64,000 nucleotides of DNA from Planctomycetota bacterium (GCA_050248855.1 JBFWRP010000001.1:59134-123133), one strand, 5' to 3'; counted from the first letter of the stretch, positions 25,756 through 53,422 are shown. Numbers and translations are program-made. Notes: a model not told the origin generated them from the letters alone.

Positions 25756-25857
25756 CCGTACGGAGGCGGGAAAACATGTTGCAGGCGGCTCGGGCGGCGC
25801 CGCGGGCGTCGGGCGTGCGCCTGGCAGCCTGCAACAAGATTTCCCGCCTCCGTACCC
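25756..25857. repeat. About 100-bp palindromic element, MITE/REP-like, copy 1
   Basis: Arms CCGTACGGAGGCGGGAAAACATGTTGCAGG and CCTGCAACAAGATTTCCCGCCTCCGTACC are near-perfect inverted repeats around a spacer of about 45 nt. It sits right after the DUF3299 stop and upstream of the tmRNA. Confidence 0.7.
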
Positions 25858-25978: not shown

Positions 25979-26332
25979 GGGGGCGAACGGATTCGACCGG
26001 AAGCCGGTCGGTTCGGGTGGCGCGCCGGGGGGCCGGACGAACCCCGTCAACAAGCGCCCGGAAACCACAGTTGCCAACAGCAACTACGCTCTCGCCGCCT
26101 AGTCGCGGCGCGGCCCCTCCTCTCTGCCCACCAGGGGAGTCGGGCCGCCATACGGTGGGCTGGTCGAGGTGTCGCCGCGGGTCGGCAGCTTGACGAGACT
26201 CTACCCGCTGGCCTTCGGCGAAGCCTGTCCCGGGCGTTTCCGCGGGTGAGACCTGAAGTACACGGACTACGCGCGTAGAGGCTCGGCTCGGCCCTTCTCG
26301 GGACGGGGGTTCGATTCCCCCCGCCTCCACCA
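25979..26332 (+). ncRNA. ssrA: tmRNA (transfer-messenger RNA)
   Basis: 5' GGGGGCGAACGGATTCGAC. Tag reading frame GCCAACAGCAACTACGCTCTCGCCGCCTAG (ANSNYALAA-stop) at about 26073..26102. 3' tRNA-like T-arm and acceptor GGGGGTTCGATTCCCCCCGCCTCCACCA. Confidence 0.9.
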
Positions 26333-33314: not shown

Positions 33315-34203
33315 TGGCGGCCAGCTCGGGGTAGTGCCGGACGAGGCTGGCCGGGACGGGGCGCTTCCTGCCGTCCGTCCGGAACGCCAGCTGCAACGAC
33401 GCGGCGATCGCCTGGCCCCGCGGGTGGTTGTTGGCGATCACGACGGTCCGTTCGCTCGACGCCGCGATGGCTCGGATGCGCGTGGCAAGCGCGTCGAGCG
33501 ACGACGCGTCGTAGTGGTGGTCGTAGCGTGCGTCGCGACCGATGCCCGGCGTGAACCACGTGCGGTCGTTGCGACCATGGAGGCGCAGGTACCCCCAGGT
33601 CCCGAACCCGGGGGTGTCGTCGGGCAGGTGGTCCGGGGAGGCCGGCCAGTCCAGATGGACCCGGGAAGCCCCCGTGGCCGCGAGCGCCTCGAGCACGTCG
33701 GGCTCGGCATGGCTTGCGTGTCGAAGCTCCAAGGCCACGGCGTGGGGCGCGAGGGCGTCGACGAGGTGGCGCAGGCGATCCACCTGCTGGCGCGTCGCGC
33801 GCGCGTGGGCGGGCAGCTGGACCAGGACGCCCGCCAGTCGTCCGATGGCGGCGAGCGGCGTCAACGACGCCACGAAGGGGGCCAGGTCCCGGGGCGTGAC
33901 GCCGGCACCCTCGTGGGAGACGTCCCGCGGCGCCTTGACGACGACGATCAGCCGGGGGTGGCGCGCCACGACCTCGGCCCAGCGGGCCACGACCTCGACC
34001 GGGACCGGGCGGTAGAAGGTCACGTTGACCTCGATCGCATCCACCAGACGGGCGACGGCGTCCAGCAACGGGGGCCCGCTGCGCAGCGTCGCCGGGTGCA
34101 CGATGCCGGCCCAGTCCGGATAGGACCACCCGGCGACGCCGACGTGGAGCGCGGCGCGCAGGGAGGCGGGAAACGTCGTCGCAGATGGCCGGTCCACGCC
34201 CAC
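33277..34203 (-). CDS. DUF72 (YecE/UPF0759) family protein
   Basis: GWSYPDW N-terminal motif and FYR motif. The true start is probably downstream of 34203, because the first about 14 codons overlie the palindromic element. Confidence 0.7.
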   Translation of the reverse strand: MGVDRPSATTFPASLRAALHVGVAGWSYPDWAGIVHPATLRSGPPLLDAVARLVDAIEVNVTFYRPVPVEVVARWAEVVARHPRLIVVVKAPRDVSHEGAGVTPRDLAPFVASLTPLAAIGRLAGVLVQLPAHARATRQQVDRLRHLVDALAPHAVALELRHASHAEPDVLEALAATGASRVHLDWPASPDHLPDDTPGFGTWGYLRLHGRNDRTWFTPGIGRDARYDHHYDASSLDALATRIRAIAASSERTVVIANNHPRGQAIAASLQLAFRTDGRKRPVPASLVRHYPELAAITLPTGQLDLFA

Positions 34204-34255
34204 CAGGGAACGGGCCCCAGGCGCGGCTGCAACAAGATTTCCCGCCTCCGTACCG
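34160..34255. repeat. About 100-bp palindromic element, copy 2
   Basis: GGGAGGCGGGAAA...(about 60 nt)...CTGCAACAAGATTTCCCGCCTCCGTACC. The right arm is 28/28 identical to 25829..25856. Confidence 0.7.
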
Positions 34256-38967: not shown

Positions 38968-41900
38968 ATGCGCGCCCTGGGTCTCGTTTCGCTGGCCATC
39001 GTGCTGACTGCCGTCGTGCTGCCGCCGCTGCTGGCGGGCGGACGCATCGGCGAAGCCGGGGACGACGACCATCCCCCGGTGGCCGACGACGGTCGGGCCG
39101 GGACCGTGCGCACCGCGCAGGGCACCGTGCTGGTGCGCCCGGCCGGCAGCCTGCGCTTCACGCCGCTCGCCCGGGGCGACCTGCTCGCGGTCGGCGACTT
39201 CGTCCGCACGGCGGTGCCCGGCGCCCACCTCGCCGAGCTCGATCTCGTCGGCTCGCGCGTCGTCCTCGGCCCGGGAACGACCGTGCGGCTGGCGGCCCGC
39301 GATGCCGTGCACGTCGTCCAGGGCGAGCTCGAGGTCGTGCCCGCGCCCGGGGCCTCCGTCCAGGTGACGGGACCGGGGAGCTTCGCGCGGACCGTCACGG
39401 GGGCGCCTGCCGCCGAGGGCGGCCTCGCTCCCCGCCTGCAGCTCCGCTCCGACGGACGCGGCGTGGTCGAGCTCGAGAAGGAGCCGCGCTGGCTGACCAG
39501 CTGGCGGGCTGCGGCGGGTGCCGCGTGGGCCGGTGGCCTGACGGCGCAGATCGACGGTCGCGACGTGGACCTCGCCGTGGTCCGCCACGAGGTGACGGTC
39601 GAAGTCCGCGACCAGCTCGCGCGGACGACCATCGAGCAGGTCTTCCGCAACGCGACCGACGTTCGTACCGAAGGCACGTTCCGTTTCCCGCTTCCGGCCG
39701 GCGCCAGCATCAGCGGCTTCGCGATGTGGATCGGCGACGAGATGGTCGAAGCCGACATCGTCGAGCGCCAGCGCGCCCGGCAGATCTACGAGGACATCCT
39801 GCGTCGCAAGAAGGACCCGGGCCTCCTCGAGTGGGAGGGCGGCAACCTCTTCCAGGCTCGCGTGTTCCCGATCGAGGCACGTAGCACCAAGCGCGTCCGC
39901 GTGCGCTACACGCAAGTCCTGCCGCTCCAGGGCCAGGCCTACCGCTACCGCGTGCCGCTGACCAGCGAGCTGCTGCGCCAGAAGCCGCTCGAGCACCTCT
40001 CCGTCAAGCTGCGGCTGCAGAGCGAGACGCCGATTGCCCGCGTGACGTCCCCGACCCATCCGGTCAACGCGCGCACGACGGCCCACACGGCCGACGTCGA
40101 GTACATGCTCGAGGGTGCCTCGCCGGACCGCGATTTCGAGGTGGAGGTCGCCCTCACGTCACCGCCGGACTTGGTGCTGCTCCCCCACCGCCGTGGCGAC
40201 GATGGCTACTTCCTCGTCCAGCTGCGCCCGCCCACGCCGGAGGCCCAGGGGTTCGAGCGCACCTTGGTGCCCGAGGGCAAGCCTCTGGACGTCGTGCTCG
40301 TGGCCGACACGTCCGGCTCGATGTCCGCGTCGGCCCGTGAGGCGCAGGACCAGCTCTTCCGCGCGTTCGTGGCCCTGCTCGGCGCCGAGGACCGCGTGCG
40401 CCTGCTGGCCTACGACGTGAAGCCCGTGTGGCTCCTCGAGGAGCCGGCGGCTCCCGACGCCCAGGAGCTGGCCGGCGCGCTCGACGCACTGGCCGCGCGT
40501 CGCTCGCTCGGCTGGAGCGACGTGGACGCCGGCCTGGAAGCCGCGCTGGCGGCGGCCCCCGCAGGGGGCCTCGTGGTGCATGTCGGCGACGGCATCGTCA
40601 CCACGGGCGACGCCGATCCGCAGGCGGGGGCCGCGCGCTTGGCGGCGCTCGGCGAGCGCTTTCCGGGACGTGCGGTCCACGCCGTGGCGCCGTCCTCCAC
40701 GTACGAGGCGCCCGTGCTCGAGGCCCTGGCGCGCATCGGCGGCGGCTCGATGCGCACGACCGATCCCGCGGCGCCGGCCAGCACCGCGGCGGCCCTGCTG
40801 CGCGACGCGCTGCTGCCGCAGTGGAAGAACCTGAAGCTGCGCATCGAGGGCGTGCCGACGGCTCGCGTGTACCCCGAGGTGCTGCCCAACACGCCGGCGG
40901 GCACGCAGCTGATGGTGCTGGGGCGCTTCGCGCCCACCCAGGGCGACACGCAGGTCACCGTGCACGTCGAGGGGGACGGCCCCGAGGGTCCGGTCCGTGT
41001 CTCGACCCGGGCGGTGCTCCCCGGCACCGACGGCGGCAACGACTTCTTGCCGCGCCTCTGGGCCCGTCGTCACCTCGACGCCCTGCTCGAACAAGGGCCC
41101 GACGCGGAGACGCAGGCCGAGATCGTCGAGTTCAGCGAGCGCTTCGGCATCCTCACGCCGTACACCTCCCTGCTGGTGCTGGAGAGCGACGAGGACCGCG
41201 AGCGCTACGGCGTGGGTCGTCGTGTCCACATGCGCGACGGCGAGCGCTTTTTCGCCGAGGCCCGCGACACCGCCGTGCTCGAGGCGCGCCGCGCCGCGCT
41301 GCGCGAGGCGAGCGGCTGGCGCACGTGGCTGCGCGCGGCGGCGATGCAGGAGATCGCCGGACTGGGGCGTGACTTCGGCGTGCCGTTCCCGCCCCCGGAC
41401 CCGGGCGTCGTGACGCGGGGCGAGGGCGCCGACTCGGCGCTTGGCGAGCTCCTGGACGCCACGCTCGGCCTGCGCGACCAGCTGCAGGCCGGGAAGCTGC
41501 TCGAGCTGAAGCACGAGGGCGGCGAGTGGGCCGGCGGCTTGGAGGAAGAAGCCGAAGGGTCGTTCGGCCGCCGAGGGGGCGCGTCTCCCGGAAGCGGCGG
41601 CATGCCCCCGCCGGCGTCCGCCCCCAGGCCGAGGGCAGCCACGCGTGCCATGGACCAGGGCGACTCGGTCGATGGGCGGCTGGCCGACCGGGGCCTCTAC
41701 GCGAGCGAAGAGAGCGAGGAAGGCCTGGAGGCCGCAGCCGCCGAGCCCCAGCTCGCCGGCCCGTCCATCGAGGACCTCGACTTCGAAACGGACAACGACG
41801 ACTACGCCCCGGCCGACCGCCGTGCGTCGCTGCAGCGGGCCCGCAAGAGGCCGTCTGGGCGCCGCGAGGACCCGCGGCTGGCGCAGTCCAGCTCGCTCTG

Positions 41901-44900
41901 GGCCTCGCTGCGCACGAGCCCCTGGTGGGATGGCCTGGGGTGGCGCGAGCGCCCGGCACCGGGGCCGTCCGCGACGTCGCTCGGCTTCCCGCACGTACCG
42001 CCTGATCTGCCCGTGGCCGAGCCCGAGGCGCCCGAGACGCCCTGGCCCGCCGACCTCCGCGAACGCCTGGGTGCGCTGCTCCGTCGCGCTCGCTTCGTGC
42101 CCACCGCGGGCGCCTGGCACGTGACGGTGCTCGAGCGCACGATGCACCCGCTGCGTGGCATCCCCACACATGCCCGTCGCAGCGAGTCGTGGGTAGCGGC
42201 CGATGGCTGGTACCAGACGCTGCGCCAGGCAACGTCCGGCAGCGAGGCGGCCCAGTGGTGGCTGCTCGGCCGGCGCGGCGCCGTCGACGTGATCACGCGG
42301 CTGGCCATGACGCGCGCCGGCTCCGCGCGGGACGCGGGCGACTGGGGTCTTCCGCTCGCCGACCTCGAGAACGACCGCCTGGTGGCGGCGCTCGAGCACT
42401 CGCACGACGTCCGCATCACGAGCGACACCGAGGGCCGGGTGACGTTCCGGTTCACGCCGCGCGGTCCGCGCCCGGGGACCTGGCGCGAATGGGTCGTGGA
42501 CACGGCGCGCAAGGCCCTCGTGGAAGAGCGCATGGGCGACGAGCGCACGGGCCGCGTCCACTGGCGTCGCGTGCACGAGGGGCTCGTCGAGGTGGCCGGG
42601 GTCACGCTCCCGTCGCGCACGGTGAGCTACGACCGGGACGGTCGCGTCAACGCCGACCAGGCCTTCACGTGGGAGCTCGTGGATGCGACCGCGTGGACCG
42701 CCGCCGCGGCGCGCCTGGCGAACCCGGGCGAGGACGTGCTCGTGCTGGATGCGGAGCTGGCTTCGCTCGACGACGCCCGACTCGCCGTGGCCGAGGGCAA
42801 GGCCGGGCTCCGGGACCACCTCTCGTTGCTCGTGGACGCGGCCTCGCGGGCCGACGGCGACGCCGTGGCCACCCACCTTCGCGCCGCGCGCGGCGCGAAC
42901 CCCGCCACGCCGGAGGCCTTCGACGCGATTGCCCTGGGCGTGCTGGGCCGCGTGCGCCGGCCCGACGACATGGCCGCTCTCCGGCCGCGCTTGCTGGCCG
43001 ACGCCAAGGCCTCGCCGCCGTCCCGCGCCATCGCCCGGGCGCTTCGTGCGCTGCGCGGTCTGGGCGCGCAACTGGGCGCCAACGAGGTCCTCGCCCTGCT
43101 CGAGAGCGTGGCCGGCCTCTTGACGTCGGATCAGGACGTGGTCGTGGCCGAGGAGGCCGCGTGGCGCGACCTCGTCCACGACCGGGCCCGCCTGCAGGCG
43201 CTGGCGCGCGCCGAGCGGCGCCGCGAGGCCGTCGCGTTCCTGGCCGAGCTCGCGGAGCGCTGGCCCGCCGAGCTGGACCTCCAGCTCGCGTGGTCACGAG
43301 CGCTGCGCGAGCGCGGCGACCGGGCCGCTGCGCGTGCGTGGCTGACAGGAGCCCTCGAGCGTGGCGCACCGTGGCTGGACCACGAGCTGGACTCGCTCTA
43401 CACGACGATCACCGATGGCCTCTGGCAGGACCGCCTGCTGGACGACCTCGTCCAAGCCACGACGGCCTGGACCAGCAAGCGCCCGGACAACCCGGAGAGC
43501 TGGAAGCGCGCGGCCACCATCGCGTACTTGACCGGACGCGATGCCGAGACCGACGCCGAGCAGCTCGGGCTCCTGGCAGCACCTCCGGCCGGCCACGACG
43601 ACGACGTCCTCGCCGCGCGCCAGCAGACGGCCGTATGGCTCCTGCTGGGCGACGGCTGGCTCTTCGACGTGCAAGGCATCCTGCCGCAGCACGCCGAGGC
43701 GCTCGCACGCTTCGCGGCGGCTGCGTTCGCACAGGATGGCAGCCCTCCGCCCCGCATGTGGTCGCTGGCCGGGCGTATCGCCACCCACTGGCGCTTCCGC
43801 CGCACCGAAGGCAACCGCCTGCTCGAGGCCGCCCTGCGCGAGCAGCTGCTGGAGGGCGTCACGTCGGCGACCACCGAGCGTCTGCGCGTCCTCCTGGGGC
43901 GCGTCGTCCTTCGCGGCGACGCCCGCGGCGAAGACCGTGCTCGCGTCCTGGAGGCGCTGCGCGCGCGCCACGCTGCCGCCGAGGCACTCGACGAGCGCGA
44001 TGCGCTCGCGGACATGCTCCTTGGCTTGCTCGACCAGGCAGGAGAGGGCGAGGCCGCCCTGGACTTCCAGCGCGGGCGCCTGGCACGCCGTCGCGCGGCC
44101 GGGGAACCGGTCGAGGCAATCGTGCGCGACCTCGTGGAGCGCTTGCTGCGCACGGACGATGGCGACGCCGCCCGCGAAGACGAAGTCGTCGCCCTCGTGG
44201 GCACGTTCGCCGGCACCCAGGAAGACCACCGTGCCGCCACGGCCGATGCGGCCTCGTGGTCACGTCGCTTGGCGGGACGCTTCGAGGACTGGCGCGAGCG
44301 CACGGCGCTCGGTTCGCTCGAGGACCTCGCCAAGCTGTCGCGCGAGGCCCAGCGCGAAGCCCGGCGCGAAGCGCGGGATGCGGCACGGAGCCAGCTCGTG
44401 ACGCGCCTTCCCGCGTTGGCCCCGGCGCTGCCGGACGCCTTTGCCACGTGGCTCGAACTCGAGGCCCTGGCCGCAAGCGTCCAGTCCGGTACCGACATCG
44501 AGGCGCGCACGGCTGCGGCTCTTGGGCGCCTGGGCGCCGAGTGGGCGCGTGATCGGCGCCCGTCCGAACGGGTCCAGCGTGAGCGCTTGGCCACGGCGAT
44601 CGCGTTCGCCGCGCTGCGCAGGTCGCCGCCCGAAGGCTTGGCCGACCGCCTGCTGGCGGTCCTGGATGCGATCCACGAAGCCGATGCGTTCGCCCTCGAG
44701 GTCGGGGCCGACGAGGAGGTCGTCGAGATCCTCCTCGATGCCCGCTACCACGTGGCCCGACTCCTGGTGGCCCTGGATCGCGGGAGCGAGGTCCGCGAGC
44801 GCCTTGCCGCGTGGGTCGGCACCGAGGGCTCGTCGTCGCGTTGGACGGTGCTCTTGGCGCACCTCGAGGCCGAAGCCGGCGATCTCGCGGCGGCCGTCGC

Positions 44901-47775
44901 ACGTCTGGAGCCCCTGCGCACGAGCGGGGCACTCGGCGCGGACGTGCTCGCGCGCATCGGGACGTGGCAGCTCGCCCTTGGCGACGACTCCGCCCGCGAG
45001 CAGGCACGCCAAGCCGAGATCCAGGCCCTGCAGCCCTGGCAGCTGCGCAACCAGATCCGCTCGCACGCACGCAGCTTGTCGCGGCGGGGCGAGGCCGCCG
45101 GTGGCGAGCTCGAGCCCGCGGCGCTCCAGCTCGTGGAGGCCCTCCTGGCCCGCGTGCCGGACCCGGCTTCGTACACCGGCGACCTGCTCTCCCTCTACAT
45201 GCCCACCAAGGACCACCGCGTCGTGGCCATGCTCGCGCCGGGCCTCGTCGGGTTCACCACGGAACGGGCCTACAGCACGCTCGCAGCGCTGTCCGCCATC
45301 GTGGCGTCGGTCCACGAGGAGGCCACGATCGACGTCCTGCGCGAAGCGCTTGCCGGGCTTCGCGATCGGGCGCAGAGCCCCGTCGACCGCCGCGTGCTCG
45401 ATCTCGCCGAAGCCCGCGTGGCCGCGCGCGCGGCCGAGGTCCTGATGGCGGACCCGGCCCATGCGCGGGCCGCCGTGGCCGCGCTCGAGCGGGCGCTGGT
45501 CGCCGAACCGGTCGAGGGCGAGAGGTTGCTGCTCGCACGCCACCTCGTCAGCCTCGGGGCCCAGCGCGACCACGCGCTTGTCGACGTCGTCGTGCGCGGG
45601 CTCCGCGGGCTGATGGAGGGTCTGCCGGCGGCTGGCGAGGAGCGCCTGCGCATCGGCACGATGCTCGCGGGGCTGTTCGGCAACCTGAAGCGCTTCGACG
45701 CCCAGGAAGACCTCCTGGCCGGCCTGTGGGGCGAGGTCCGTGCGGCGCGGCCCGCGGAGCTCGATGTCGCGTCGAGCGAGTTGCTGCGCGCCCTCGTGGA
45801 CGCGCGGCTGGCGCGAGGACACGCGGAGCGCGCCGAAGCCGCCCTGCTGGCCGAGCTTGCCGAGCGCCCGGAAGCCCCGGCCGTCGACAGCTGGCGCGAG
45901 AAGCTCTTCGACGTGCGCGTGAACGCCCTGCAGCGCGGTCTCAGGACGAGACTCGGCGAGGGTGCCACCCTGTACCGCGCGCTGCGCGACGCACTCCGGT
46001 CGCGACTCGACGAGGAGGCCGACCGCGCCAGCGAGATCGCGTCGCGACTGGCCCAGGTGCACCAGGTCGCCGCGCTGCACGCGGCGTTGAAGGCCGTCGC
46101 CCGCGACGACCTGGAGGCCTGGTCGCAACAGGCGCTGCCGGCCGTACTGCGCCGCTTGCCCCAACAGGCCACGGGGGTAGCCGGCACGTTTGCGGGCGCC
46201 CTGGCCCAGCTCGGGGACCCGGCCGCGGGCCTCGCCCTGCTGCTGGATCGGGCCGAGGCCGAGCCGCGCTTCCTGGAGCGCGTGGAGTGGGACGTCGCGT
46301 CCCGTCAGCTGGATGCGATGGCCGTGTGGCGCCACGACGCGGGGGCCGTGGCCCGACCGCTGGTGGCGCGCCTCTTCGCGCTGGTGGAAGCCGCGCTCGA
46401 AGCGGCCCTCACGACCGGCGAGCGACACGGCAGTCGATTCTGGAACGCCCATGACCGGTACGGCTGGTCCGAGCGCTTCGACGACATGCAGGCGTTGATC
46501 GAGCGCGTCGTGGAGCGCGAGAGCGACAACGCCTCGGTGGCGTGGCGTGGCGCGCAGATCCTGCACGGCCCGATGCGCCGTCCGGGTGCCGGCATCGACG
46601 TGCTCGAGGCCGCCGTCGGTCGTCTGCCCGACGAGGACAACCTGCGCCGGTCGCTGGCGGGGTGGCTCCTGGAAGCGGGTCGCGCCTCGCGTGCGCGCCC
46701 GCATGCCGAGCTCCTCGTGAAGCAGCGCCCCGACCACTGGAACGACCGCGACCTGCTCGCGCGCGTCTTGATCGCCGTGCGCGACCAAGCGGCGCTCGGC
46801 GAGCTGCTCGACGAGACGGCGCGTCTCTGGCGGGAGAAGAAAGCCTTCCCCTCGGGCACGGCCCGGCACCTCGGGGAGCGCGCCACCGAGGGTGGCCTGG
46901 GCGATCGTGCCCTGGCCTGGCTGGACGAAGCCGTGCGGCTGAGGCGCGAGGAGCGCGGCGATGTGGGCGGCCAGGACCACTGGTTGGCCGACACCTACAC
47001 GTTGCTCGCCCGGGCCCGATCCGCTGCGGGCGACGACGCAGGGGCGTTCGAAGCCTCGCGGGCCGCGCTCGTGATGACGTCCGCGCGCGATGCCAACCGC
47101 GTCCGCGAGGCGCGTCAGGAGATCGAGAAGGTCCTCGCGGGCGCGCGGGACCTCGCCTCCTTGGACGCGGCCTACGAGGCGGAGGTCGCCGAGTCGGGCT
47201 TGGACGCGGCCGTCCTGCGGCAGGCGTTCGCCGCGGTCTGGCGCCAGCAGGGCAGGCTGGAGCGGGCGGAGCACCACCTGCTCGAGGCCCGCGACGTCGA
47301 GCCCGACGACGCCAGCGTGCACGGCGCGTTGGTGGCGCTGTACGACGAGATGAAGCGGCCGGCGGATGCGGTGGCCGCGCTCTACGGCTCGATCGAGCTG
47401 GCCCCGCTCGGCTACGACGCCTACGAAGACCTCGCGCGGCGTTTGGCGGCTCTCGGCGACGAGGCCGGGCGAGAACGCGCGCTCACGTCCCTGGCCGAGC
47501 CCGCGCCGCACCAGGCGGAAGGACATCGTCGTCTGGGCCGTGCGTTCACGGGCGACGGTCGGTTGGACGCCGCGCTCGTGCAGTGGGCGCAGGTCGTTCG
47601 CACCGAGCGCCTGGATCCCACCGGCTGGCTCGAGTACGCGGAGGCCGCCGTACGCGCGGGCGACACGGCCACGGCACGCAAGGCGTTGCAGCACGTCCTG
47701 GAAGGAAGCTGGGAAGAGCGCTTCGGCCCCGTCAAGCAACAGGCCGCCGCGCGACTCGCCCGCCTGCCCTCATGA
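38968..47775 (+). CDS. Giant secreted VIT-vWA protein with an alpha-helical (TPR/HEAT-like) C-terminal extension of about 2,100 aa
   Basis: 8,808-nt uninterrupted frame with a good SD. Signal peptide MRALGLVSLAIVLTAVVLPPLLAGG. VIT domain (FRFPLPAGASISGFAMWIGDEMVEADIVERQRARQIYEDIL...NLFQARVFPI...RVRYTQVLP). vWA domain with MIDAS (VVLVADTSGSMS). Then an acidic disordered linker and a helical region of about 2,100 aa with no P-loop. Confidence 0.85.
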   Translation: MRALGLVSLAIVLTAVVLPPLLAGGRIGEAGDDDHPPVADDGRAGTVRTAQGTVLVRPAGSLRFTPLARGDLLAVGDFVRTAVPGAHLAELDLVGSRVVLGPGTTVRLAARDAVHVVQGELEVVPAPGASVQVTGPGSFARTVTGAPAAEGGLAPRLQLRSDGRGVVELEKEPRWLTSWRAAAGAAWAGGLTAQIDGRDVDLAVVRHEVTVEVRDQLARTTIEQVFRNATDVRTEGTFRFPLPAGASISGFAMWIGDEMVEADIVERQRARQIYEDILRRKKDPGLLEWEGGNLFQARVFPIEARSTKRVRVRYTQVLPLQGQAYRYRVPLTSELLRQKPLEHLSVKLRLQSETPIARVTSPTHPVNARTTAHTADVEYMLEGASPDRDFEVEVALTSPPDLVLLPHRRGDDGYFLVQLRPPTPEAQGFERTLVPEGKPLDVVLVADTSGSMSASAREAQDQLFRAFVALLGAEDRVRLLAYDVKPVWLLEEPAAPDAQELAGALDALAARRSLGWSDVDAGLEAALAAAPAGGLVVHVGDGIVTTGDADPQAGAARLAALGERFPGRAVHAVAPSSTYEAPVLEALARIGGGSMRTTDPAAPASTAAALLRDALLPQWKNLKLRIEGVPTARVYPEVLPNTPAGTQLMVLGRFAPTQGDTQVTVHVEGDGPEGPVRVSTRAVLPGTDGGNDFLPRLWARRHLDALLEQGPDAETQAEIVEFSERFGILTPYTSLLVLESDEDRERYGVGRRVHMRDGERFFAEARDTAVLEARRAALREASGWRTWLRAAAMQEIAGLGRDFGVPFPPPDPGVVTRGEGADSALGELLDATLGLRDQLQAGKLLELKHEGGEWAGGLEEEAEGSFGRRGGASPGSGGMPPPASAPRPRAATRAMDQGDSVDGRLADRGLYASEESEEGLEAAAAEPQLAGPSIEDLDFETDNDDYAPADRRASLQRARKRPSGRREDPRLAQSSSLWASLRTSPWWDGLGWRERPAPGPSATSLGFPHVPPDLPVAEPEAPETPWPADLRERLGALLRRARFVPTAGAWHVTVLERTMHPLRGIPTHARRSESWVAADGWYQTLRQATSGSEAAQWWLLGRRGAVDVITRLAMTRAGSARDAGDWGLPLADLENDRLVAALEHSHDVRITSDTEGRVTFRFTPRGPRPGTWREWVVDTARKALVEERMGDERTGRVHWRRVHEGLVEVAGVTLPSRTVSYDRDGRVNADQAFTWELVDATAWTAAAARLANPGEDVLVLDAELASLDDARLAVAEGKAGLRDHLSLLVDAASRADGDAVATHLRAARGANPATPEAFDAIALGVLGRVRRPDDMAALRPRLLADAKASPPSRAIARALRALRGLGAQLGANEVLALLESVAGLLTSDQDVVVAEEAAWRDLVHDRARLQALARAERRREAVAFLAELAERWPAELDLQLAWSRALRERGDRAAARAWLTGALERGAPWLDHELDSLYTTITDGLWQDRLLDDLVQATTAWTSKRPDNPESWKRAATIAYLTGRDAETDAEQLGLLAAPPAGHDDDVLAARQQTAVWLLLGDGWLFDVQGILPQHAEALARFAAAAFAQDGSPPPRMWSLAGRIATHWRFRRTEGNRLLEAALREQLLEGVTSATTERLRVLLGRVVLRGDARGEDRARVLEALRARHAAAEALDERDALADMLLGLLDQAGEGEAALDFQRGRLARRRAAGEPVEAIVRDLVERLLRTDDGDAAREDEVVALVGTFAGTQEDHRAATADAASWSRRLAGRFEDWRERTALGSLEDLAKLSREAQREARREARDAARSQLVTRLPALAPALPDAFATWLELEALAASVQSGTDIEARTAAALGRLGAEWARDRRPSERVQRERLATAIAFAALRRSPPEGLADRLLAVLDAIHEADAFALEVGADEEVVEILLDARYHVARLLVALDRGSEVRERLAAWVGTEGSSSRWTVLLAHLEAEAGDLAAAVARLEPLRTSGALGADVLARIGTWQLALGDDSAREQARQAEIQALQPWQLRNQIRSHARSLSRRGEAAGGELEPAALQLVEALLARVPDPASYTGDLLSLYMPTKDHRVVAMLAPGLVGFTTERAYSTLAALSAIVASVHEEATIDVLREALAGLRDRAQSPVDRRVLDLAEARVAARAAEVLMADPAHARAAVAALERALVAEPVEGERLLLARHLVSLGAQRDHALVDVVVRGLRGLMEGLPAAGEERLRIGTMLAGLFGNLKRFDAQEDLLAGLWGEVRAARPAELDVASSELLRALVDARLARGHAERAEAALLAELAERPEAPAVDSWREKLFDVRVNALQRGLRTRLGEGATLYRALRDALRSRLDEEADRASEIASRLAQVHQVAALHAALKAVARDDLEAWSQQALPAVLRRLPQQATGVAGTFAGALAQLGDPAAGLALLLDRAEAEPRFLERVEWDVASRQLDAMAVWRHDAGAVARPLVARLFALVEAALEAALTTGERHGSRFWNAHDRYGWSERFDDMQALIERVVERESDNASVAWRGAQILHGPMRRPGAGIDVLEAAVGRLPDEDNLRRSLAGWLLEAGRASRARPHAELLVKQRPDHWNDRDLLARVLIAVRDQAALGELLDETARLWREKKAFPSGTARHLGERATEGGLGDRALAWLDEAVRLRREERGDVGGQDHWLADTYTLLARARSAAGDDAGAFEASRAALVMTSARDANRVREARQEIEKVLAGARDLASLDAAYEAEVAESGLDAAVLRQAFAAVWRQQGRLERAEHHLLEARDVEPDDASVHGALVALYDEMKRPADAVAALYGSIELAPLGYDAYEDLARRLAALGDEAGRERALTSLAEPAPHQAEGHRRLGRAFTGDGRLDAALVQWAQVVRTERLDPTGWLEYAEAAVRAGDTATARKALQHVLEGSWEERFGPVKQQAAARLARLPS

Positions 47776-47809
47776 CCCCTCCACGGCGGCGTCCGGCTAC
47801 CCTGGAGGC

Positions 47810-48115
47810 ATGCCCGAGGCCCCCGTCGTCGAACCGGAGCAGACGACCGACACCACGACGCAGGACGCGCCGCGGTGGAAGGTCCTGCTCCACGACGACG
47901 ACGTCACGACCATCGACTTCGTCGTGTGGCTCTTGATGCGCGTCTTTGCCAAGCCGGCGGAGGAAGCCGTGGAGCTGACGCTCAAGGTGCACCGCACGGG
48001 CGTGGCCATCGTGGCCGTCACCAGCTTCGAGCGCGCCGAGCTCTACGTGGAGCAGGTCCACTCGCTGGCCCGCCCCCGCGGCTATCCCCTCACCGCCACC
48101 CTCGAACAGGCCTAG
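47810..48115 (+). CDS. clpS: ATP-dependent Clp protease adaptor
   Basis: RWKVLLHDDDVTTIDFVVWLLMRVF...HRTGVAIVAVTSFERAELYVEQV matches the ClpS core. 35 nt downstream of the giant ORF. No clpA follows. Confidence 0.85.
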   Translation: MPEAPVVEPEQTTDTTTQDAPRWKVLLHDDDVTTIDFVVWLLMRVFAKPAEEAVELTLKVHRTGVAIVAVTSFERAELYVEQVHSLARPRGYPLTATLEQA

Positions 48116-48202
48116 GTGGGTGCACGATTTGGGGTGCGAGCGTGCGGCTCGCCAGATGCTTGGTCCCGCGCCTCCATCGGCTCCTCGAGTCCGTAGCACC
48201 TT

Positions 48203-48229
48203 GCGCGGCCGGCCAAGGCCGGCCGACGC
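48203..48229 (+). terminator. GC-rich hairpin (GGCCGGCC-AA-GGCCGGCC) downstream of clpS
   Basis: Perfect 8-bp stem with a 2-nt loop and flanking partial pairing. No U-tract, as expected in high-GC genomes. Confidence 0.35.
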
Positions 48230-48310
48230 AGACCACGAGTCGTCGCCGATGGAGGCGCGCTACCGTCGCCCTGGCGACCCGATGCGATGTCATTGCCCAT
48301 CCAGGAAACC

Positions 48311-48400
48311 GTGTGTACGGAGGCGGGGCTTCCTTCCGCAGCTTGCCGATCGGTGCCCGCGCCTGGGAGGGATTCCTTCGGCAGGCTGCGGAAGGATTCC
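48311..48400. repeat. Degenerate third copy of the palindromic element
   Basis: Left terminus TGTGTACGGAGGCGGGG and right terminus GGATTCCCCGCCACC resemble the GTACGGAGGCGGGAAA / TTTCCCGCCTCCGTAC ends. An internal CCTTCCGCAGC / GCTGCGGAAGG stem is also present. Confidence 0.45.
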
Positions 48401-48664
48401 CCGCCACCTGCTGCCTCTGGTCCGCGGGTTCATCCCCCGCGCCGAAGGCGCAACCTGGCTTCTCATCCCCATGCCCAGGCCCCGATTGTCCAAGGGGCCG
48501 CCTACGCCGGCGGGCGACATGTCGCTCGACTACGTGATCGGGGCGCCAGGGCGAGGGCCGCGGGCAGCCGCGCGGTCTGTCCACGCAAGGACCCAGCGCG
48601 GCAATCCGCGGCCCCGCACCTGACGCGCCGCACCTTCGCGCGACACGAGCTTCGACCGACCCAG

Positions 48665-48805
48665 CTAGCAGGGCTCGTCGAGGAGGTCGCACGGCTCGTA
48701 GCAGGACCACGGGTCGTTGCAGCGAGCCTTCATGCAGCCGGCCAGCGTGAGCGTGCCGAGCGCGAGGGCGAGAACGGCGAGGATGCGGAAGTTACGAGCG
48801 CGCAT
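48665..48805 (-). CDS. Tiny cysteine-rich lipoprotein (46 aa)
   Basis: MRARNFRILAVLALALGTLTLAGC lipobox, then a 23-aa mature peptide with 5 Cys (CMKARCNDPWSCYEPCDLLDEPC). Confidence 0.5.
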   Translation of the reverse strand: MRARNFRILAVLALALGTLTLAGCMKARCNDPWSCYEPCDLLDEPC

Positions 48806-48858
48806 GGAGACTCCAGGGGATGGGTGCCGGTAGGACGCGCCACCACGAAGCCCCTTGG

Positions 48859-49050
48859 TCAGGGGCAACAGCGATCCGGAGGCGGGTCCTGACACAGGGA
48901 CGGACAGACCGGGCCGAAGCGCCCCGGGGGCCACGCCTCGCACTCGCAGTCCACGGACCGGCTGGCACAGCCCCCCAGGCCCAGCAGGGCCAGGAGCAGC
49001 AGTGCCAGCACGGCGCGGCCAGGAAGCGAACGGTGGTCGACGGTACGCAC
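48859..49050 (-). CDS. Tiny cysteine-rich lipoprotein (63 aa)
   Basis: GTG start, signal and lipobox LLALLGLGGC, then a 36-aa mature peptide with 8 Cys (CASRSVDCECEAWPPGRFGPVCPSLCQDPPPDRCCP). Confidence 0.45.
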   Translation of the reverse strand: MRTVDHRSLPGRAVLALLLLALLGLGGCASRSVDCECEAWPPGRFGPVCPSLCQDPPPDRCCP

Positions 49051-49192
49051 GGACGAGCCCTCCCTCGCATCGGCTGTCAGGCCCTGGCGACTTTACCGCC
49101 CGGCGGATCGGACCGGTAGCGAAGAGGCTTCGCGGCCCTACGGCCTCTCCCCCACGCGATGGCCGGGTGGCGGGGCCACCGCGGAGCCCGCT

Positions 49193-50887
49193 ATGCTCCG
49201 CCCGATGCACCGCGCCTTCCTGCTGCTCACGCTTGCCTCGTGCCTCACGGCCGCTTCCGCCTGGGCGCGCGACGACGATGTCGAGGCCCTCGTCGCCCAG
49301 CTCGAGAAGAACGCGCGGGATCCCTTCGAGCAGCGCGAGCGCGAGGCGGCGATCCGCAAGCTGGCCGACGTGGCCACCCCTTCGGCGGCCGAGGCCCTGG
49401 TCCCGATCCTCGACGACCCCTTCGAGCACCTCCACGATCGCGTCGTGTCCGCATGGATCGAGATGCTGCGCACGAACCGTAGCGGCGACCTGCACACGAT
49501 GTTCGCCCAGCGCCTCCTGAAGCACCGCAACCCGGCGGTTCGCGCCGGAGCGGCCACTGCGCTCGGGCTGTCCAGCGGTGCGGAGATGGCCGAGGACTTC
49601 CGCGGCTCGCTTCGCTCCGAGAAGGACGCGAGCGTTCTCGTGCGCCTCTGCCAGGGCGCCCTGAAGCTGCGGGAGAAGCCGGATCTGGCGGGTGCCTTCG
49701 TGCCCTTGCTCGGCCACAAGGACGGCGCCGTCGTCGAGGCGGCCGCCCTGGCTTGCGTGCGGTACGAGCCCGGCGACGAGACGGACGCCGCCCTGCGCAA
49801 GGCGCTCGCGCGCCACAGGGACCCGCTGGCGCGCGCGGGCGCGCTGCAGGCACTGGCGGCACGCGGAACGCTGGCGGCGGCCGACTTCGGCGAAGGGTTC
49901 TCCGACGACGCGATCGAGACACGCGTGGCCCTTGCCCGTGCGTTGCCCTCCCCATCCCCCCATCTCGCGGTTCCCGGACCGGGGCGCGATGTGCTCGTGT
50001 CCCTCTTGGGCGACCCGTCGTGGCGTGTGCGGGTGGCGGCGGTGCAAGCAGCGCTTCGGCTCTGGCACGCGGACGTCGTCATGCCCCTGATCGCGCGTCT
50101 GGAGGTCGAGACCGGCCGCGTGCGCGACGACGTGCACCGGGCCCTGGTCACGCTGACGGGCGCCGATGTCGCCGCGGACGCGCAGCTGTGGACCGTGTGG
50201 TGGGCGGCGCGGGGCGAGACGTTCGACCCCGGCGAGCGCCCGGATGCGGACGCCGGGGGGCGGATCCGCTTCCGGGAGCCGCAGCACGGCAACGGCTCAC
50301 CCGGTACGAAGACGGTCGCCTTCTACGACCTGCCGCTCGCGAGCGAGAGGCTGGTCTTCGTGTTCGATCTCTCGGGCAGCATGGGCAAGGCGGACGGCGA
50401 TGCCGCGGGACGCAGCAAGCTCGACGTGCTGCGCGAGCGGTTTGCGACCGTCCTGGCCGAGCTCCCCGAGTCGACGCACTTCGACGTGTGGGTGTGGCGC
50501 TACCCCAGCTCCTACCCGCCCAAGCCGAAGCTGGAGCGCGCCTTCGACAAGCTCCAGCCGCTGACGGCAGGCAACCGTGCCAAGGCCCAGAAGTGGATGG
50601 CCAAGCAGGAAGCCAAGGGCTGGGGCGCGTTCTTCGAGCCCATCGAGGCCGCCCTCACCGAGGACATCGACACGCTGGTCCTCCTCTCGGACGGTGTACC
50701 CAGCCGAGGCCGCTACGAGCGCCGCGATCGCCTGCTCGTCGAAGTCGCCCAGGCCAACCGCTACGCGGGCCTTCGCGTGGACACGATCCTCGCCGGGACC
50801 AAGGGCACCGACCGCGCCTTCATGGACGACCTCGCCGCTTCGACGGGAGGCCGTTCCCGGGCCGTTGCCGGCCGCGAAGATCGCTGA
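49193..50887 (+). CDS. Secreted HEAT-repeat + vWA domain protein
   Basis: Signal peptide, an N-terminal HEAT/PBS-lyase repeat region of about 330 aa, and a C-terminal vWA with MIDAS (VFVFDLSGSMGK). Confidence 0.75.
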   Translation: MLRPMHRAFLLLTLASCLTAASAWARDDDVEALVAQLEKNARDPFEQREREAAIRKLADVATPSAAEALVPILDDPFEHLHDRVVSAWIEMLRTNRSGDLHTMFAQRLLKHRNPAVRAGAATALGLSSGAEMAEDFRGSLRSEKDASVLVRLCQGALKLREKPDLAGAFVPLLGHKDGAVVEAAALACVRYEPGDETDAALRKALARHRDPLARAGALQALAARGTLAAADFGEGFSDDAIETRVALARALPSPSPHLAVPGPGRDVLVSLLGDPSWRVRVAAVQAALRLWHADVVMPLIARLEVETGRVRDDVHRALVTLTGADVAADAQLWTVWWAARGETFDPGERPDADAGGRIRFREPQHGNGSPGTKTVAFYDLPLASERLVFVFDLSGSMGKADGDAAGRSKLDVLRERFATVLAELPESTHFDVWVWRYPSSYPPKPKLERAFDKLQPLTAGNRAKAQKWMAKQEAKGWGAFFEPIEAALTEDIDTLVLLSDGVPSRGRYERRDRLLVEVAQANRYAGLRVDTILAGTKGTDRAFMDDLAASTGGRSRAVAGREDR

Positions 50888-50956: not shown

Positions 50957-52057
50957 ATGCGCCAGACGCCGCTCCGTGACCAGCATGTCGCCCTGGGGGC
51001 GCGCATGGTCGATTTCCACGGGTGGGAGATGCCCGTCCAGTACCGGGGCATCCTCGACGAGACCCGTTGCGTGCGCACGCGCGGCGGGATCTTCGACCTG
51101 TGCCACATGGGACGTCTCGAGATCACGGGGCCCGACCGCGAGCGTCTCGTCGAGCATGTCTTCAGCGCCAACCTCGGCAAGCTGAAGCATGGGCGTGCCA
51201 AGTACGGCTTCCTGCTCGACGAGGGCGGCTTCCCGCTCGATGACGTCCTCGTCTATCGCGACCACGACCTCGTCCACATGGTGATCAACGCCACCGGGCG
51301 CGGGCACGACGGCGCCTGGATCGAGTCCCGGCGCGACGCTGCGGGACTGGACGCGCACGTGCGCGAGGTCTCCGACCAGCAGGCGATGATCGCGTTGCAG
51401 GGCCCCGTCTCCGAGGCCGTGCTGCAGCCGCTCTGCGACGCGGACCTGGGCAAGCTCCGCTACTACGCGTTCACCAACGCCACGGTTCGCGACGTCCCGA
51501 CGCTGATCGCGCGCACGGGCTACACCGGGGAGGACGGCTTCGAGCTGTTCTTCGACCCGGCCGAGGCCGTGGCCACGTGGAAGGCCTTGCTGGCGACCGG
51601 CGCCGACCACGGGCTCGAGCCCATCGGCCTGGGCGCCCGGGACCTGCTGCGTCTCGAGGCCGGCATGCCTCTCTACGGTCAGGAGATCAACACGTCGATC
51701 GACCCGCTCGAGGCCGACTTGGCCTTCGGCGTGGACCTGGCCAAGACGGGCACCGTGGGCATTCCCGCGCTCGCCGACCGAAAGGCGCGGGGTCAGGCTC
51801 GCCACGCGGTCTCCCTCGCGGCCGAGGGTGGGCGCGTGCCGCGCACCGACACCGAGCTGTTCGATGCGCCCGAGAACGGCGAGCGCGTCGGGCGCGTCAC
51901 GAGCGGCGGCGTCAGCCCGACGCTCGGGCGCACGATCGCACGAGCCCTCGTCCAGACGGGCCACGAGAGCCTGGGCACGACGCTCTGGGCCGACGTACGC
52001 GGCAAGCGCTGGCCCCTGCAGGTCGTCCCCCACCCCTTCTACCGACGCGGCGCTTGA
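50957..52057 (+). CDS. gcvT: Glycine cleavage system T protein (aminomethyltransferase)
   Basis: MRQTPLRDQHVALGARMVDFHGWEMPVQY N-terminus and a full-length GcvT-like sequence. Confidence 0.9.
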   Translation: MRQTPLRDQHVALGARMVDFHGWEMPVQYRGILDETRCVRTRGGIFDLCHMGRLEITGPDRERLVEHVFSANLGKLKHGRAKYGFLLDEGGFPLDDVLVYRDHDLVHMVINATGRGHDGAWIESRRDAAGLDAHVREVSDQQAMIALQGPVSEAVLQPLCDADLGKLRYYAFTNATVRDVPTLIARTGYTGEDGFELFFDPAEAVATWKALLATGADHGLEPIGLGARDLLRLEAGMPLYGQEINTSIDPLEADLAFGVDLAKTGTVGIPALADRKARGQARHAVSLAAEGGRVPRTDTELFDAPENGERVGRVTSGGVSPTLGRTIARALVQTGHESLGTTLWADVRGKRWPLQVVPHPFYRRGA

Positions 52058-52181: not shown

Positions 52182-52565
52182 ATGTCCGATCGTCCGAACG
52201 ACATCCGCTACACGTCGTCCCACGAGTGGGTCCGCAAGGAGGGCGGTGTCGCCACCATCGGCATCACCGACTTCGCCGTGGAGCACCTCGGCGACCTCGT
52301 GTTCGTCCAGCTCCCCGAGGTCGGTGACGAGGTCTCGGCCGGCGACAGCGTCTGCGAGGTGGAGAGCGTCAAGGCCGTTGGCGAGGTCTACAGCCCGGTC
52401 TCCGGAGAGGTCGTCGAAGTGAACGCGGCACTGGGCGACGACCAAGGCCCGCTCGCCGGCGACCCGTTTGGTGCGGGCTGGCTGTTCAAGGTGAAGACCG
52501 ACGACGACGTCTCCTCGCTGATGGACGTCGCCGCGTACGAGGCGCAGCTCGGCACGGCTTCCTGA
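52182..52565 (+). CDS. gcvH: Glycine cleavage system H protein
   Basis: YTSSHEWV...ESVKAV lipoyl-lysine motif context. Confidence 0.9.
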   Translation: MSDRPNDIRYTSSHEWVRKEGGVATIGITDFAVEHLGDLVFVQLPEVGDEVSAGDSVCEVESVKAVGEVYSPVSGEVVEVNAALGDDQGPLAGDPFGAGWLFKVKTDDDVSSLMDVAAYEAQLGTAS

Positions 52566-52615: not shown

Positions 52616-53422
52616 ATGCACCCGGTCCTCGTCGACATCTCCGAGTCGATCAAGATCTACAGCTTCGGCACGTTCATCGTGCTCGCCTTCCTCGTGGCGT
52701 CGTGGTTCGCGCGTCGGCGCGCTTCCAAGCTGCTCGGCGTGGACAAGGAGCGCGTCTTCTCCGTCTGCTTCACGCTGCTCTTCATCGGGCTGCTCGGGGC
52801 GCGGATGGCCTACGTCTTCCTCAAGTACGAGGAGTTCGCCGCCCGACCGATGTCGTTCCTCGAGATCTGGAACGGCGGGCTCGTCTGGTACGGGGGGCTG
52901 ATCGCCTGCTTGCTGTGGCTCTCGTGGTACCTGCCTCGCAGGCCCGAGCTCAAGGGCTTCGCCCTTCTCGACATCCTGGCGCTTGCGGCCTGCTTGGCCA
53001 TCTTCGTGGGTCGCCAGGCAAGCTTCCTCAGCGGTGAGAACTACGGCAAGATTGCCCCCGGCCTCCCGTGGGCGGTCACCTTTCCCCCCGTCGCCTACAC
53101 GCAGGTTCCCGGCAGCCACATCGGCCAGCCGCTCCACCCGACGCAGCTCTACCACGCGTTGCATGGCCTCGTGCTGTTCGGGCTGCTGCTCGTGGTCGCC
53201 AAGCGCAAGCCCGGCCCCGGTGCGCTCACCGGCCTGTTCCTCGTGCTGTACGCCGTCGGGCGCGCCGTGATCGAGATCTGGCGCGATGACGATGTCGCGC
53301 GCGGCATGGCGTTCGGCGGTCGCGTCAGCACGAGCCAGCTGATCTCGATCCCCATCTTCTTCCTCGGCCTCGCCCTGCTGCTGTCGCGCTGGCGCAAGCG
53401 TGCCTCCCGGCAGGAGGCCTGA
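52616..53422 (+). CDS. lgt: Prolipoprotein diacylglyceryl transferase
   Basis: Lgt signature region (LGARMAYVF...WNGGLVWYGGLI...) in a polytopic membrane protein. Confidence 0.9.
   Translation: MHPVLVDISESIKIYSFGTFIVLAFLVASWFARRRASKLLGVDKERVFSVCFTLLFIGLLGARMAYVFLKYEEFAARPMSFLEIWNGGLVWYGGLIACLLWLSWYLPRRPELKGFALLDILALAACLAIFVGRQASFLSGENYGKIAPGLPWAVTFPPVAYTQVPGSHIGQPLHPTQLYHALHGLVLFGLLLVVAKRKPGPGALTGLFLVLYAVGRAVIEIWRDDDVARGMAFGGRVSTSQLISIPIFFLGLALLLSRWRKRASRQEA

Follow-up and report, generated by a model that had tools for sequence, protein, structure and literature searches.

Two predicted cysteine-rich lipoproteins encoded between the genes of secreted vWA proteins in uncultivated Planctomycetota

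We asked what two very small, cysteine-rich genes are doing between the genes of two secreted proteins with von Willebrand factor A (vWA) domains. The small genes, here called pep1 and pep2, lie in a 64,000-nucleotide stretch of a Planctomycetota bacterium (GCA_050248855.1, JBFWRP010000001.1:59134-123133; 73.8% GC), which we refer to as the window. A first-pass annotation had drawn attention to the interval 47776-50887, where clpS, two mini-genes and a gene for a secreted HEAT-vWA protein follow a giant gene, and had suggested that the mini-genes encode disulfide-rich lipopeptides acting as signals, toxins or metal binders. We found that pep1 and pep2 are very probably real lipoprotein genes. 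They represent two families that lack a Pfam or NCBIfam model and are confined to a clade of uncultivated Planctomycetota, and their products probably have a role in the cell envelope.

Coding evidence for two small lipoprotein families

Both genes were recognised by their GC content at third codon positions (GC3), their lipoboxes and their homologues:

48665-48805, minus strand: pep1
48859-49050, minus strand: pep2

These coordinates are exactly those annotated before. The two open reading frames (ORFs) had been described as convergent, which is not the case: both are on the minus strand and stand in tandem, pep2 then pep1, 53 nt apart. pep1 encodes a 46-residue prolipoprotein with the lipobox LAG/C (the slash marks the predicted cut) and a mature part of 23 residues with 5 Cys (CMKARCNDPWSCYEPCDLLDEPC). 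pep2 starts with GTG and encodes a 63-residue prolipoprotein with the lipobox LGG/C, the mature part of which (CASRSVDCECEAWPPGRFGPVCPSLCQDPPPDRCCP) has 36 residues, 8 Pro and 7 Cys. The lengths of both mature peptides and the 5 Cys of the shorter one had been given correctly; the 8 Cys attributed to the longer one had not. Shine-Dalgarno-like sites of the GGAG type are found 6-9 nt before both start codons (GGAG 6-7 nt before the ATG of pep1, GGGAGGG upstream of the GTG of pep2).

The base composition of the ORFs resembles that of the flanking genes. GC at the first, second and third codon position is 0.63/0.52/0.91 in pep1 and 0.78/0.62/0.83 in pep2, the flanking genes have a GC3 of 0.90-0.95, and the GC3 peak falls in the exact reading frames of both mini-ORFs. 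In the NCBI metagenome-assembled genome (MAG) both ORFs had been picked up by gene callers; in most contigs of the sister species the caller skipped pep2. The contig JBFXDE010000011 (Planctomycetota MAG GCA_050181445.1) is a same-strain match to the window. For comparison, related loci were gathered with the HEAT-vWA protein as anchor, which yielded 73 loci from GTDB species representatives; loci are designated by L numbers. The sister species comprises L006-L015 and L020 (HEAT-protein identity 84-86%) and a more distant relative L016-L019 (68%). The sister-species peptides are 83% and roughly 90% identical to those of the window, and L016-L019 encode both peptides too. When the window was aligned with L016 by blastn, clpS and the two ORFs aligned whereas the intergenic DNA did not. 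Among close relatives the ratio of nonsynonymous to synonymous substitution rates (dN/dS) was 0.11-0.19 for pep2 and 0.36-0.39 for pep1. The first-pass annotation had named missing conservation and background-like codon statistics as the marks of chance ORFs; the mini-ORFs are conserved and their codon use is not that of background, so that this objection fails.

Lipoboxes were assessed with a rule of the PROSITE PS51257 type, which asks for K/R in the first 7 residues, an uncharged h-region, the pattern [LIVMFWSTAG]2-[LIVMFYSTAGCQ]-[AGS]-C and the Cys at position 15-35. The rule places the lipobox at Cys24 of pep1 (LTLAG/C) and Cys28 of pep2 (GLGG/C), and 17 of 19 family members tested, both families taken together, pass. 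The earlier description of lipobox peptides with a kept Cys spacing is thus borne out by this rule and by the homologues. A six-frame scan of the 64 kb returned 6 ORFs of 30-130 residues that pass the rule, among which only pep1 and pep2, lying side by side, have at least 4 mature Cys. Pfam gave no match for pep1 and pep2 (E ≤ 0.01) or for seven longer relatives (E ≤ 1), and NCBIfam returned for the two peptides nothing beyond sub-threshold matches at the level of the signal peptide (LptM, TraV). The region upstream of pep2 (49051-49192) presumably carries the promoters of both pep2 and the HEAT-vWA gene. No sigma-70 consensus was found in it and a scan for intrinsic terminators was likewise uninformative; over the 70 nt that precede pep2, conservation with the sister lineage is about 82%.

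The pep1 family is defined by the core C-x2-3-W-x2-Y-x-[PK]-C-[DN]-L-[ILV]-E-G. Its members keep the lipobox Cys, the W, the Y and the Cys within P-C-D-L without exception, and the Cys before the W is nearly invariant. A hidden Markov model (HMM) of the family matched 20 loci with E values of 1e-10 to 1e-28, each with a lipobox. By motif scan and HMM, pep1-like genes occur in 17 species among the 73 GTDB loci and also in L016, L093, L094 and L095. The window pep1, with its 23 mature residues, is the smallest form; most relatives have 53-66 residues, and acidic, Pro-rich tails extend a few beyond this length. The longer pep1-like proteins of L026, L027, L028 and L031 end in the motif (V)AD[YF]G[QL]PP[AT][GS]R, and a similar ending, SAGLD[LS]PPAG, is seen on other small lipoproteins (L025, 6291-6788, minus strand; L023, about 5380-5900, minus strand). 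From its sequence this C-terminal motif may be a clade-specific sorting or binding tag.

The pep2 family has the core C-W-P-x-G-[RQ]-I-G-P-x-C-P-x-[LR]-C, and five of its non-lipid Cys are invariant within the close clade. pep2-like genes were found in the window, L006/L020, L016, L022, L024, L030, L047, L093 and L095, always directly 5' of pep1; P0002 and P0071 are homologous proteins. In L011 (5740-5960) a copy of pep2 carries two single-base homopolymer deletions. We rejected it as a pseudogene, as all other contigs of the species are identical and intact, and the frameshifts, which occur in one Logan assembly, are probably a sequencing or assembly error.

Word-indexed homologue searches with each peptide recovered very close relatives only. 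An exhaustive HMMER search with mature pep2 against 1.84 billion representatives returned two true relatives and one spurious repeat protein, and a degenerate motif scan for the pep1 family in JGI metagenomes returned 2 contigs only. Because of these low numbers both families are taken, on sequence searches, to be rare and clade-restricted. Small proteins are routinely overlooked; the two mini-genes described here are conserved and define two unannotated lipoprotein families in a poorly known clade of Planctomycetota.

A conserved neighbourhood with two vWA proteins

pep1 and pep2 stand among the following features:

38968-47775, plus strand: giant VIT+vWA+TPR gene (Pfam, NCBIfam)
47810-48115, plus strand: clpS (Pfam ClpS)
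48116-48664: non-coding spacer of 549 nt between the convergent clpS and pep1
49051-49192: divergent intergenic region of 142 nt between pep2 and the HEAT-vWA gene
49193-50887, plus strand: HEAT-vWA gene (Pfam HEAT_2, AlphaFold2 model, Foldseek)
50957-52057, plus strand: gcvT (Pfam GCV_T, 1.5e-84)
52182-52565, plus strand: gcvH (GCV_H annotation from the gene calls of the same-strain contig)
52616-53422, plus strand: lgt (Pfam LGT, 6.6e-56), followed by a DUF5658 gene

The mini-genes had been said to diverge from the HEAT-vWA gene. pep2 does so across the 142 nt, and at the other end of the pair pep1 is convergent with clpS.

The giant protein has 2935 residues and consists of an N-terminal hydrophobic anchor, a VIT domain (Pfam, 2e-29), a vWA domain (VWA_3, 1.3e-9) and about 2300 residues of helical or TPR repeats, its C-terminal part giving TPR-type NCBIfam matches. 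Its metal ion-dependent adhesion site (MIDAS) motif reads DTSGSM. The HEAT-vWA protein at 49193-50887 had been called a secreted HEAT+vWA protein, and HEAT repeats, a vWA fold and an intact MIDAS motif were indeed found. Its 564 residues comprise a signal peptide, a HEAT solenoid at about 30-343 (Pfam HEAT_2, 5.6e-16; PDB profile matches to alphaRep/HEAT proteins) and a C-terminal vWA domain at about 375-557. No Pfam VWA model matched the protein at E ≤ 0.01. An AlphaFold2 (AF2) model with a predicted local distance difference test (pLDDT) score of 90 shows a C-terminal alpha/beta domain, for which Foldseek returned the vWA domains of ITIH1, alpha2delta-1, TFIIH p44 and a bacterial vWA protein with E values down to 1e-6 (entries matched include 6fpy, 9vlg and 4fx5). 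The MIDAS residues D392-x-S394-x-S396 are invariant in 27 homologues, as are S499-D500-G501. By modelled fold and MIDAS motif, the C-terminus is a vWA domain. A second large HEAT-repeat protein is encoded elsewhere in the window (3864-6212, minus strand; Pfam HEAT_2, 7.4e-23).

The clpS product (101 residues) belongs to the ClpS family (Pfam PF02617, 1.9e-27, 95.3 bits, cut-off 23), and its alignment with the crystallised Caulobacter and E. coli ClpS extends over the whole protein (PDB match, 1.4e-13). In the N-degron pocket D-D, T and V-H are kept, and the first residue of NDD is changed from N to His. clpS has a dN/dS of 0.08-0.13 and a GC3 of 0.95 and encodes a homologue of the N-degron adaptor; a literature search on ClpS in Planctomycetes returned nothing specific. 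As described before, clpS follows the giant ORF, its ATG lying 35 nt past the last base, and a regular-expression check of the 64 kb found no double P-loop (double-Walker-A) ATPase of the ClpA/ClpC kind. The gene had been called an orphan, but an orphan clpS is not odd as such. In 16 of the relatives' loci examined, as in the window, clpS follows the giant gene as its conserved partner; by tblastn, homologues of the giant gene were located upstream of clpS in 15 relatives' loci. The two genes are probably co-transcribed.

The order giant gene, clpS, (pep2), pep1, (0-2.5 kb), HEAT-vWA, gcvT, gcvH, lgt is kept down to about 39% HEAT-protein identity (tblastn), and the notion of a neighbourhood beyond standard housekeeping, with two vWA proteins in one conserved cluster, is supported by this. 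A pep1-like gene is present at every clpS-bearing locus, in 16 of 16 relatives as well as in the window, usually 100-230 nt downstream and on the same strand. The lgt product lipidates lipobox cysteines; the synteny of lgt beside lipoprotein genes may be coincidental, yet is notable.

Four arrangements were observed. In the majority of loci all genes are co-directional; in the window and the sister species the pep2-pep1 cassette is inverted; in L030 (1937-2224) the order is giant gene, pep2, pep1 and then an inverted clpS; and in L093 (370-740) the cassette and the giant gene converge with no clpS in between. The internal order of pep2 and pep1 is the same in all four, which argues for a self-contained, co-transcribed unit. 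In the window lineage this module is inverted as a unit, divergent from the HEAT-vWA gene and head-on to clpS. The interval from the giant gene to the HEAT gene looks like an inversion hot-spot. In many relatives (L022, L023, L025-L030, L034, L035) a variable opposite-strand block lies between the pep1-like and HEAT genes; it encodes three kinds of protein, namely a transmembrane protein, one resembling YceI and an HExxH protein resembling Peptidase_M64, and the whole window is without it.

The spacer between clpS and pep1 had been described as about 550 bp of structured non-coding DNA. Its length (549 nt) and its exceptional folding were confirmed: the RNA fold z-score is -10.1, and a separate control run gave -8.3, where ten other stretches of 549 nt ranged from -2.3 to +1.6. 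The structure is, however, due to strain-specific palindromes for which no link to the peptide genes was seen. The spacer is composed of three long imperfect palindromes:

48145-48281: hairpin A, 137-nt imperfect palindrome, inverted repeat with 37-nt arms (fold z-score -9.5)
48315-48408: hairpin B, copy of a dispersed palindromic element (fold z-score -6.7 to -7.0)
48539-48630: hairpin D, 92-nt imperfect palindrome, inverted repeats I3 and I4 (fold z-score -6.4)

The right arm of hairpin A has a further pairing partner in the left arm of hairpin D. At the position of the spacer the sister lineage has 199 nt with a fold z-score of -2.1, and the spacer has no similarity to related loci; a tblastx comparison with all loci gave compositional noise only and was discarded. 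No Rfam family matched the spacer at its gathering score, the sub-threshold matches being miRNA-like hairpins, and neither gathering nor E-value thresholds gave a sign of a dedicated RNA gene in it. The only match in the window that reached a gathering score is the tmRNA gene outside the spacer.

Hairpin B is taken to be a copy of a dispersed element of the REP/MITE (repetitive extragenic palindrome/miniature inverted-repeat transposable element) type because its termini and inner stem are common to two other hairpins. Copies of this intergenic palindrome of about 95 nt lie at 25758-25855, 34161-34253 and 48315-48408. All three share the conserved inner stem GCAG..GC and the termini GTACGGAGGCGGG...CCCGCC (also given as GTACGGAGGCGGG...CCCGCCTCC and GTACGGAGGCGGG...CCCGCCTCCGTAC), and a 13-mer of the element occurs 4 times against 0.24 expected. 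It was not found in any related locus fetched and appears to be specific to the strain or species. One copy lies about 120 nt upstream of the tmRNA gene (25979-26332; Rfam, 136.8 bits; tag peptide ANSNYALAA according to ARAGORN). In two Logan assemblies of the same strain, three contigs (L001, L002, L005) all end inside hairpin A, at about window position 48257, consistent with disruption of the assembly by palindromes. The spacer is best read as an accumulation of palindromic insertions between two convergent genes, which may incidentally terminate or insulate transcription.

A possible membrane tether and its rivals

According to their signal sequences both peptides would be exported, modified with diacylglycerol at the lipobox Cys by Lgt and cut by signal peptidase II (SPase-II), to give peptides of 23 and 36 residues anchored to the membrane at its periplasmic face. 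In pep1 a short disulfide loop would be closed by its two invariant non-lipid Cys (C-x9-C), displaying the invariant Trp and Tyr and followed by the conserved acidic D-L-x-E, and pep2 would form a Pro-rich, disulfide-stapled knob. Of the roles considered, the likeliest is that the pair tethers the secreted vWA proteins of the neighbourhood to the membrane or is a ligand on which they dock. This role is favoured because both vWA neighbours have intact MIDAS sites, and sites of this kind typically capture extended peptides through an acidic residue (PMC7159879). The tether or ligand role by itself is drawn from analogy and is possible but doubtful; for real lipoprotein genes together with this mechanism we give a blended probability of roughly 0.4. 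One specific form of it, also drawn by analogy, is a planctomycete-specific system in which the disulfide loop and acidic motif (W-x2-Y-x-P-C-D-L-x-E) of pep1 would plug the MIDAS of the giant and/or the HEAT-vWA protein and pin the giant scaffold to the membrane, which we consider unlikely. More broadly, pep1 and pep2 may be small disulfide-linked envelope components.

Several observations weigh against the tether. L023 has a pep1-like gene with neither the giant gene nor clpS nearby, and at 11 loci with a HEAT-vWA homologue no pep1-like gene was found, although two of these offer less than 2 kb upstream, so that absence is not established there. Synteny is rigid throughout the clade, with gcvT-gcvH-lgt also kept beside the HEAT gene, and linkage alone is for this reason not proof of functional coupling. 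The HEAT-vWA family has no invariant Cys, which makes a conserved disulfide from the peptides to this protein unlikely. The Cys count in the pep1 family ranges from 4 to 12 and is often odd, which suits cross-linking or metal binding as well as it suits a defined fold. Finally, an AF2 prediction for pep2 from a 3-sequence alignment reached a pLDDT of 51 and gave no usable fold.

The main rival to the tether is a structural role, in which the peptides would form intermolecular disulfides with envelope proteins and stiffen the envelope in the manner of chlamydial OmcA. Chlamydiae and Planctomycetota both belong to the PVC (Planctomycetes-Verrucomicrobia-Chlamydiae) superphylum, and this kinship speaks for such cross-linking. 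In chlamydiae, OmcA is a 9-kDa lipoprotein of the disulfide-linked outer membrane complex (PMC2811131), and planctomycete wall preparations include Cys-rich proteins (PMC8567305). The composition of the mature peptides, with 19-22% Cys and in pep2 22% Pro, fits cross-linkers of this kind, as does the variable Cys number in the pep1 family, and the odd number of non-lipid Cys in pep2 (five invariant) favours intermolecular bonds. Yet the Pfam searches of the window peptides (E ≤ 0.01) and of the seven longer relatives (E ≤ 1) placed none of them in the OmcA or YTV families, no gene for an OmcB-like partner lies nearby, and the best-conserved feature of pep1 is its short aromatic and acidic motif rather than a Cys pattern. 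A rare, clade-restricted family would also be odd for a core wall component. We regard cross-linking as unlikely, if worth keeping in view.

Metal binding, as first suggested, would make the peptides periplasmic lipopeptides that buffer or deliver a thiophilic metal in the manner of metallothioneins or copper chaperones. pep2 has the CC, CxC and Cx3C motifs (CEC, CPSLC, CCP) and the Cys density is high. Nevertheless we judge it improbable: the conserved neighbourhood has no metal-resistance or transport genes, Pfam and NCBIfam gave no match to a metallothionein or copper-chaperone family, the CxC is not conserved (C-A-S in L016), and W, Y, P and L are among the residues that do not vary in pep1, as is typical of a folded or binding epitope. 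The periplasm, moreover, is normally oxidising.

Still less probable are sensors of envelope stress or redox state, small lipoproteins that report envelope damage to a signalling partner by their disulfide state or their location. RcsF and NlpE depend on conserved Cys, and pep1 and pep2 resemble them in being small lipoproteins with kept Cys and envelope-related gene neighbours. However, no signalling gene, be it for a histidine kinase, an anti-sigma factor or another component, is conserved beside the pair, Pfam and NCBIfam showed no homology to RcsF or NlpE, and mature pep1, at 23 residues, is far below the size of known sensors.

The signals or toxins proposed at first, to which one may add bacteriocins and ribosomally synthesized and post-translationally modified peptides (RiPPs), are very hard to reconcile with the locus. 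Secreted bioactive peptides are small and Cys-rich as well, but the N-terminus here is a classical SPase-II signal and not a RiPP leader, no modifying enzyme, dedicated exporter or immunity gene was found in about 20 syntenic loci, there was no match to an NCBIfam RiPP precursor or to a toxin family, and the genes, instead of being patchy, keep one chromosomal position by vertical descent. Equally remote is an invertible, phase-variable DNA switch formed by the pep2-pep1 cassette. The orientation of the cassette relative to clpS and the HEAT gene does differ among lineages; each lineage, though, has a single orientation over more than 10 independent assemblies, a search for inverted repeats flanking the cassette found none, no recombinase gene is nearby, and the intergenic flanks cannot be aligned between orientations, as old evolutionary inversions predict. 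A 27-nt repeat between pep1 and the HEAT gene, considered as an inverted-repeat flank, proved to be two similar signal-peptide codings and was rejected. That the mini-ORFs are chance ORFs, which are plentiful in the window at its GC content, is next to impossible: GC3 is frame-specific, conservation stops at the ORFs, dN/dS is less than 1, each homologue has a lipobox, and the motifs of the families recur in about 20 species-level genomes. The RiPP or toxin, phase-switch and chance-ORF readings are effectively excluded.

If the peptides are tethers or cross-linkers, they offer a handle on how these bacteria build a protein-rich envelope; if not, two small hypothetical lipoproteins are added to those on record. 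The result is solid, though it will not surprise a specialist and opens no long-standing question.

Comparison with known systems

A literature search on small Cys-rich periplasmic lipoproteins returned nothing specific, and we compared the locus with better known systems. The window clpS encodes a bona fide ClpS domain with most pocket residues kept, as in the proteobacterial clpS-clpA operon; its partner, in contrast, is the giant extracytoplasmic VIT-vWA-TPR gene, with no clpA or clpC found by regular expression within the 64 kb. Systems that pair MoxR with vWA proteins differ in that a MoxR ATPase was not found in the window. Like RcsF, NlpE and LptM/YifL of Proteobacteria, pep1 and pep2 are small lipoproteins in which Cys or redox state may matter, and pep1 gave a sub-threshold NCBIfam match to LptM (E 0.032, 14.3 bits, cut-off 27.7). 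This match covers residues 1-24 only, that is, signal and lipobox, whereas the mature part has no homology and cognate partners are absent nearby. The YTV cell-wall proteins are likewise Cys/Pro-rich, restricted to Planctomycetota and associated with the envelope (PMC8567305), but they are large and carry YTV repeats, while the window peptides are lipoproteins without a YTV motif.

Comparable with the tether are receptor-ligand pairs of vWA domains, such as integrin I-domains with acidic ligand motifs and bacterial vWA proteins with the extended peptides that they capture. Both secreted neighbours have the D-x-S-x-S of a MIDAS, and pep1 has an acidic D-L-x-E after its predicted loop; the likeness is one of analogy. 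Chlamydial OmcA (Chlam_OMP3) is likewise a lipobox-bearing, very small mature lipoprotein from the PVC superphylum, very rich in Cys and presumed to work in the envelope by way of disulfides (PMC2811131). The window peptides, known from sequence alone, are 2-4 times smaller and have no detectable similarity to it, no OmcB-like gene adjoins them, and pep1 is defined by an aromatic and acidic motif. If the MIDAS-plug reading were true, the locus would represent a new module of PVC envelope architecture that parallels chlamydial OmcA/OmcB and is evolutionarily independent of it.

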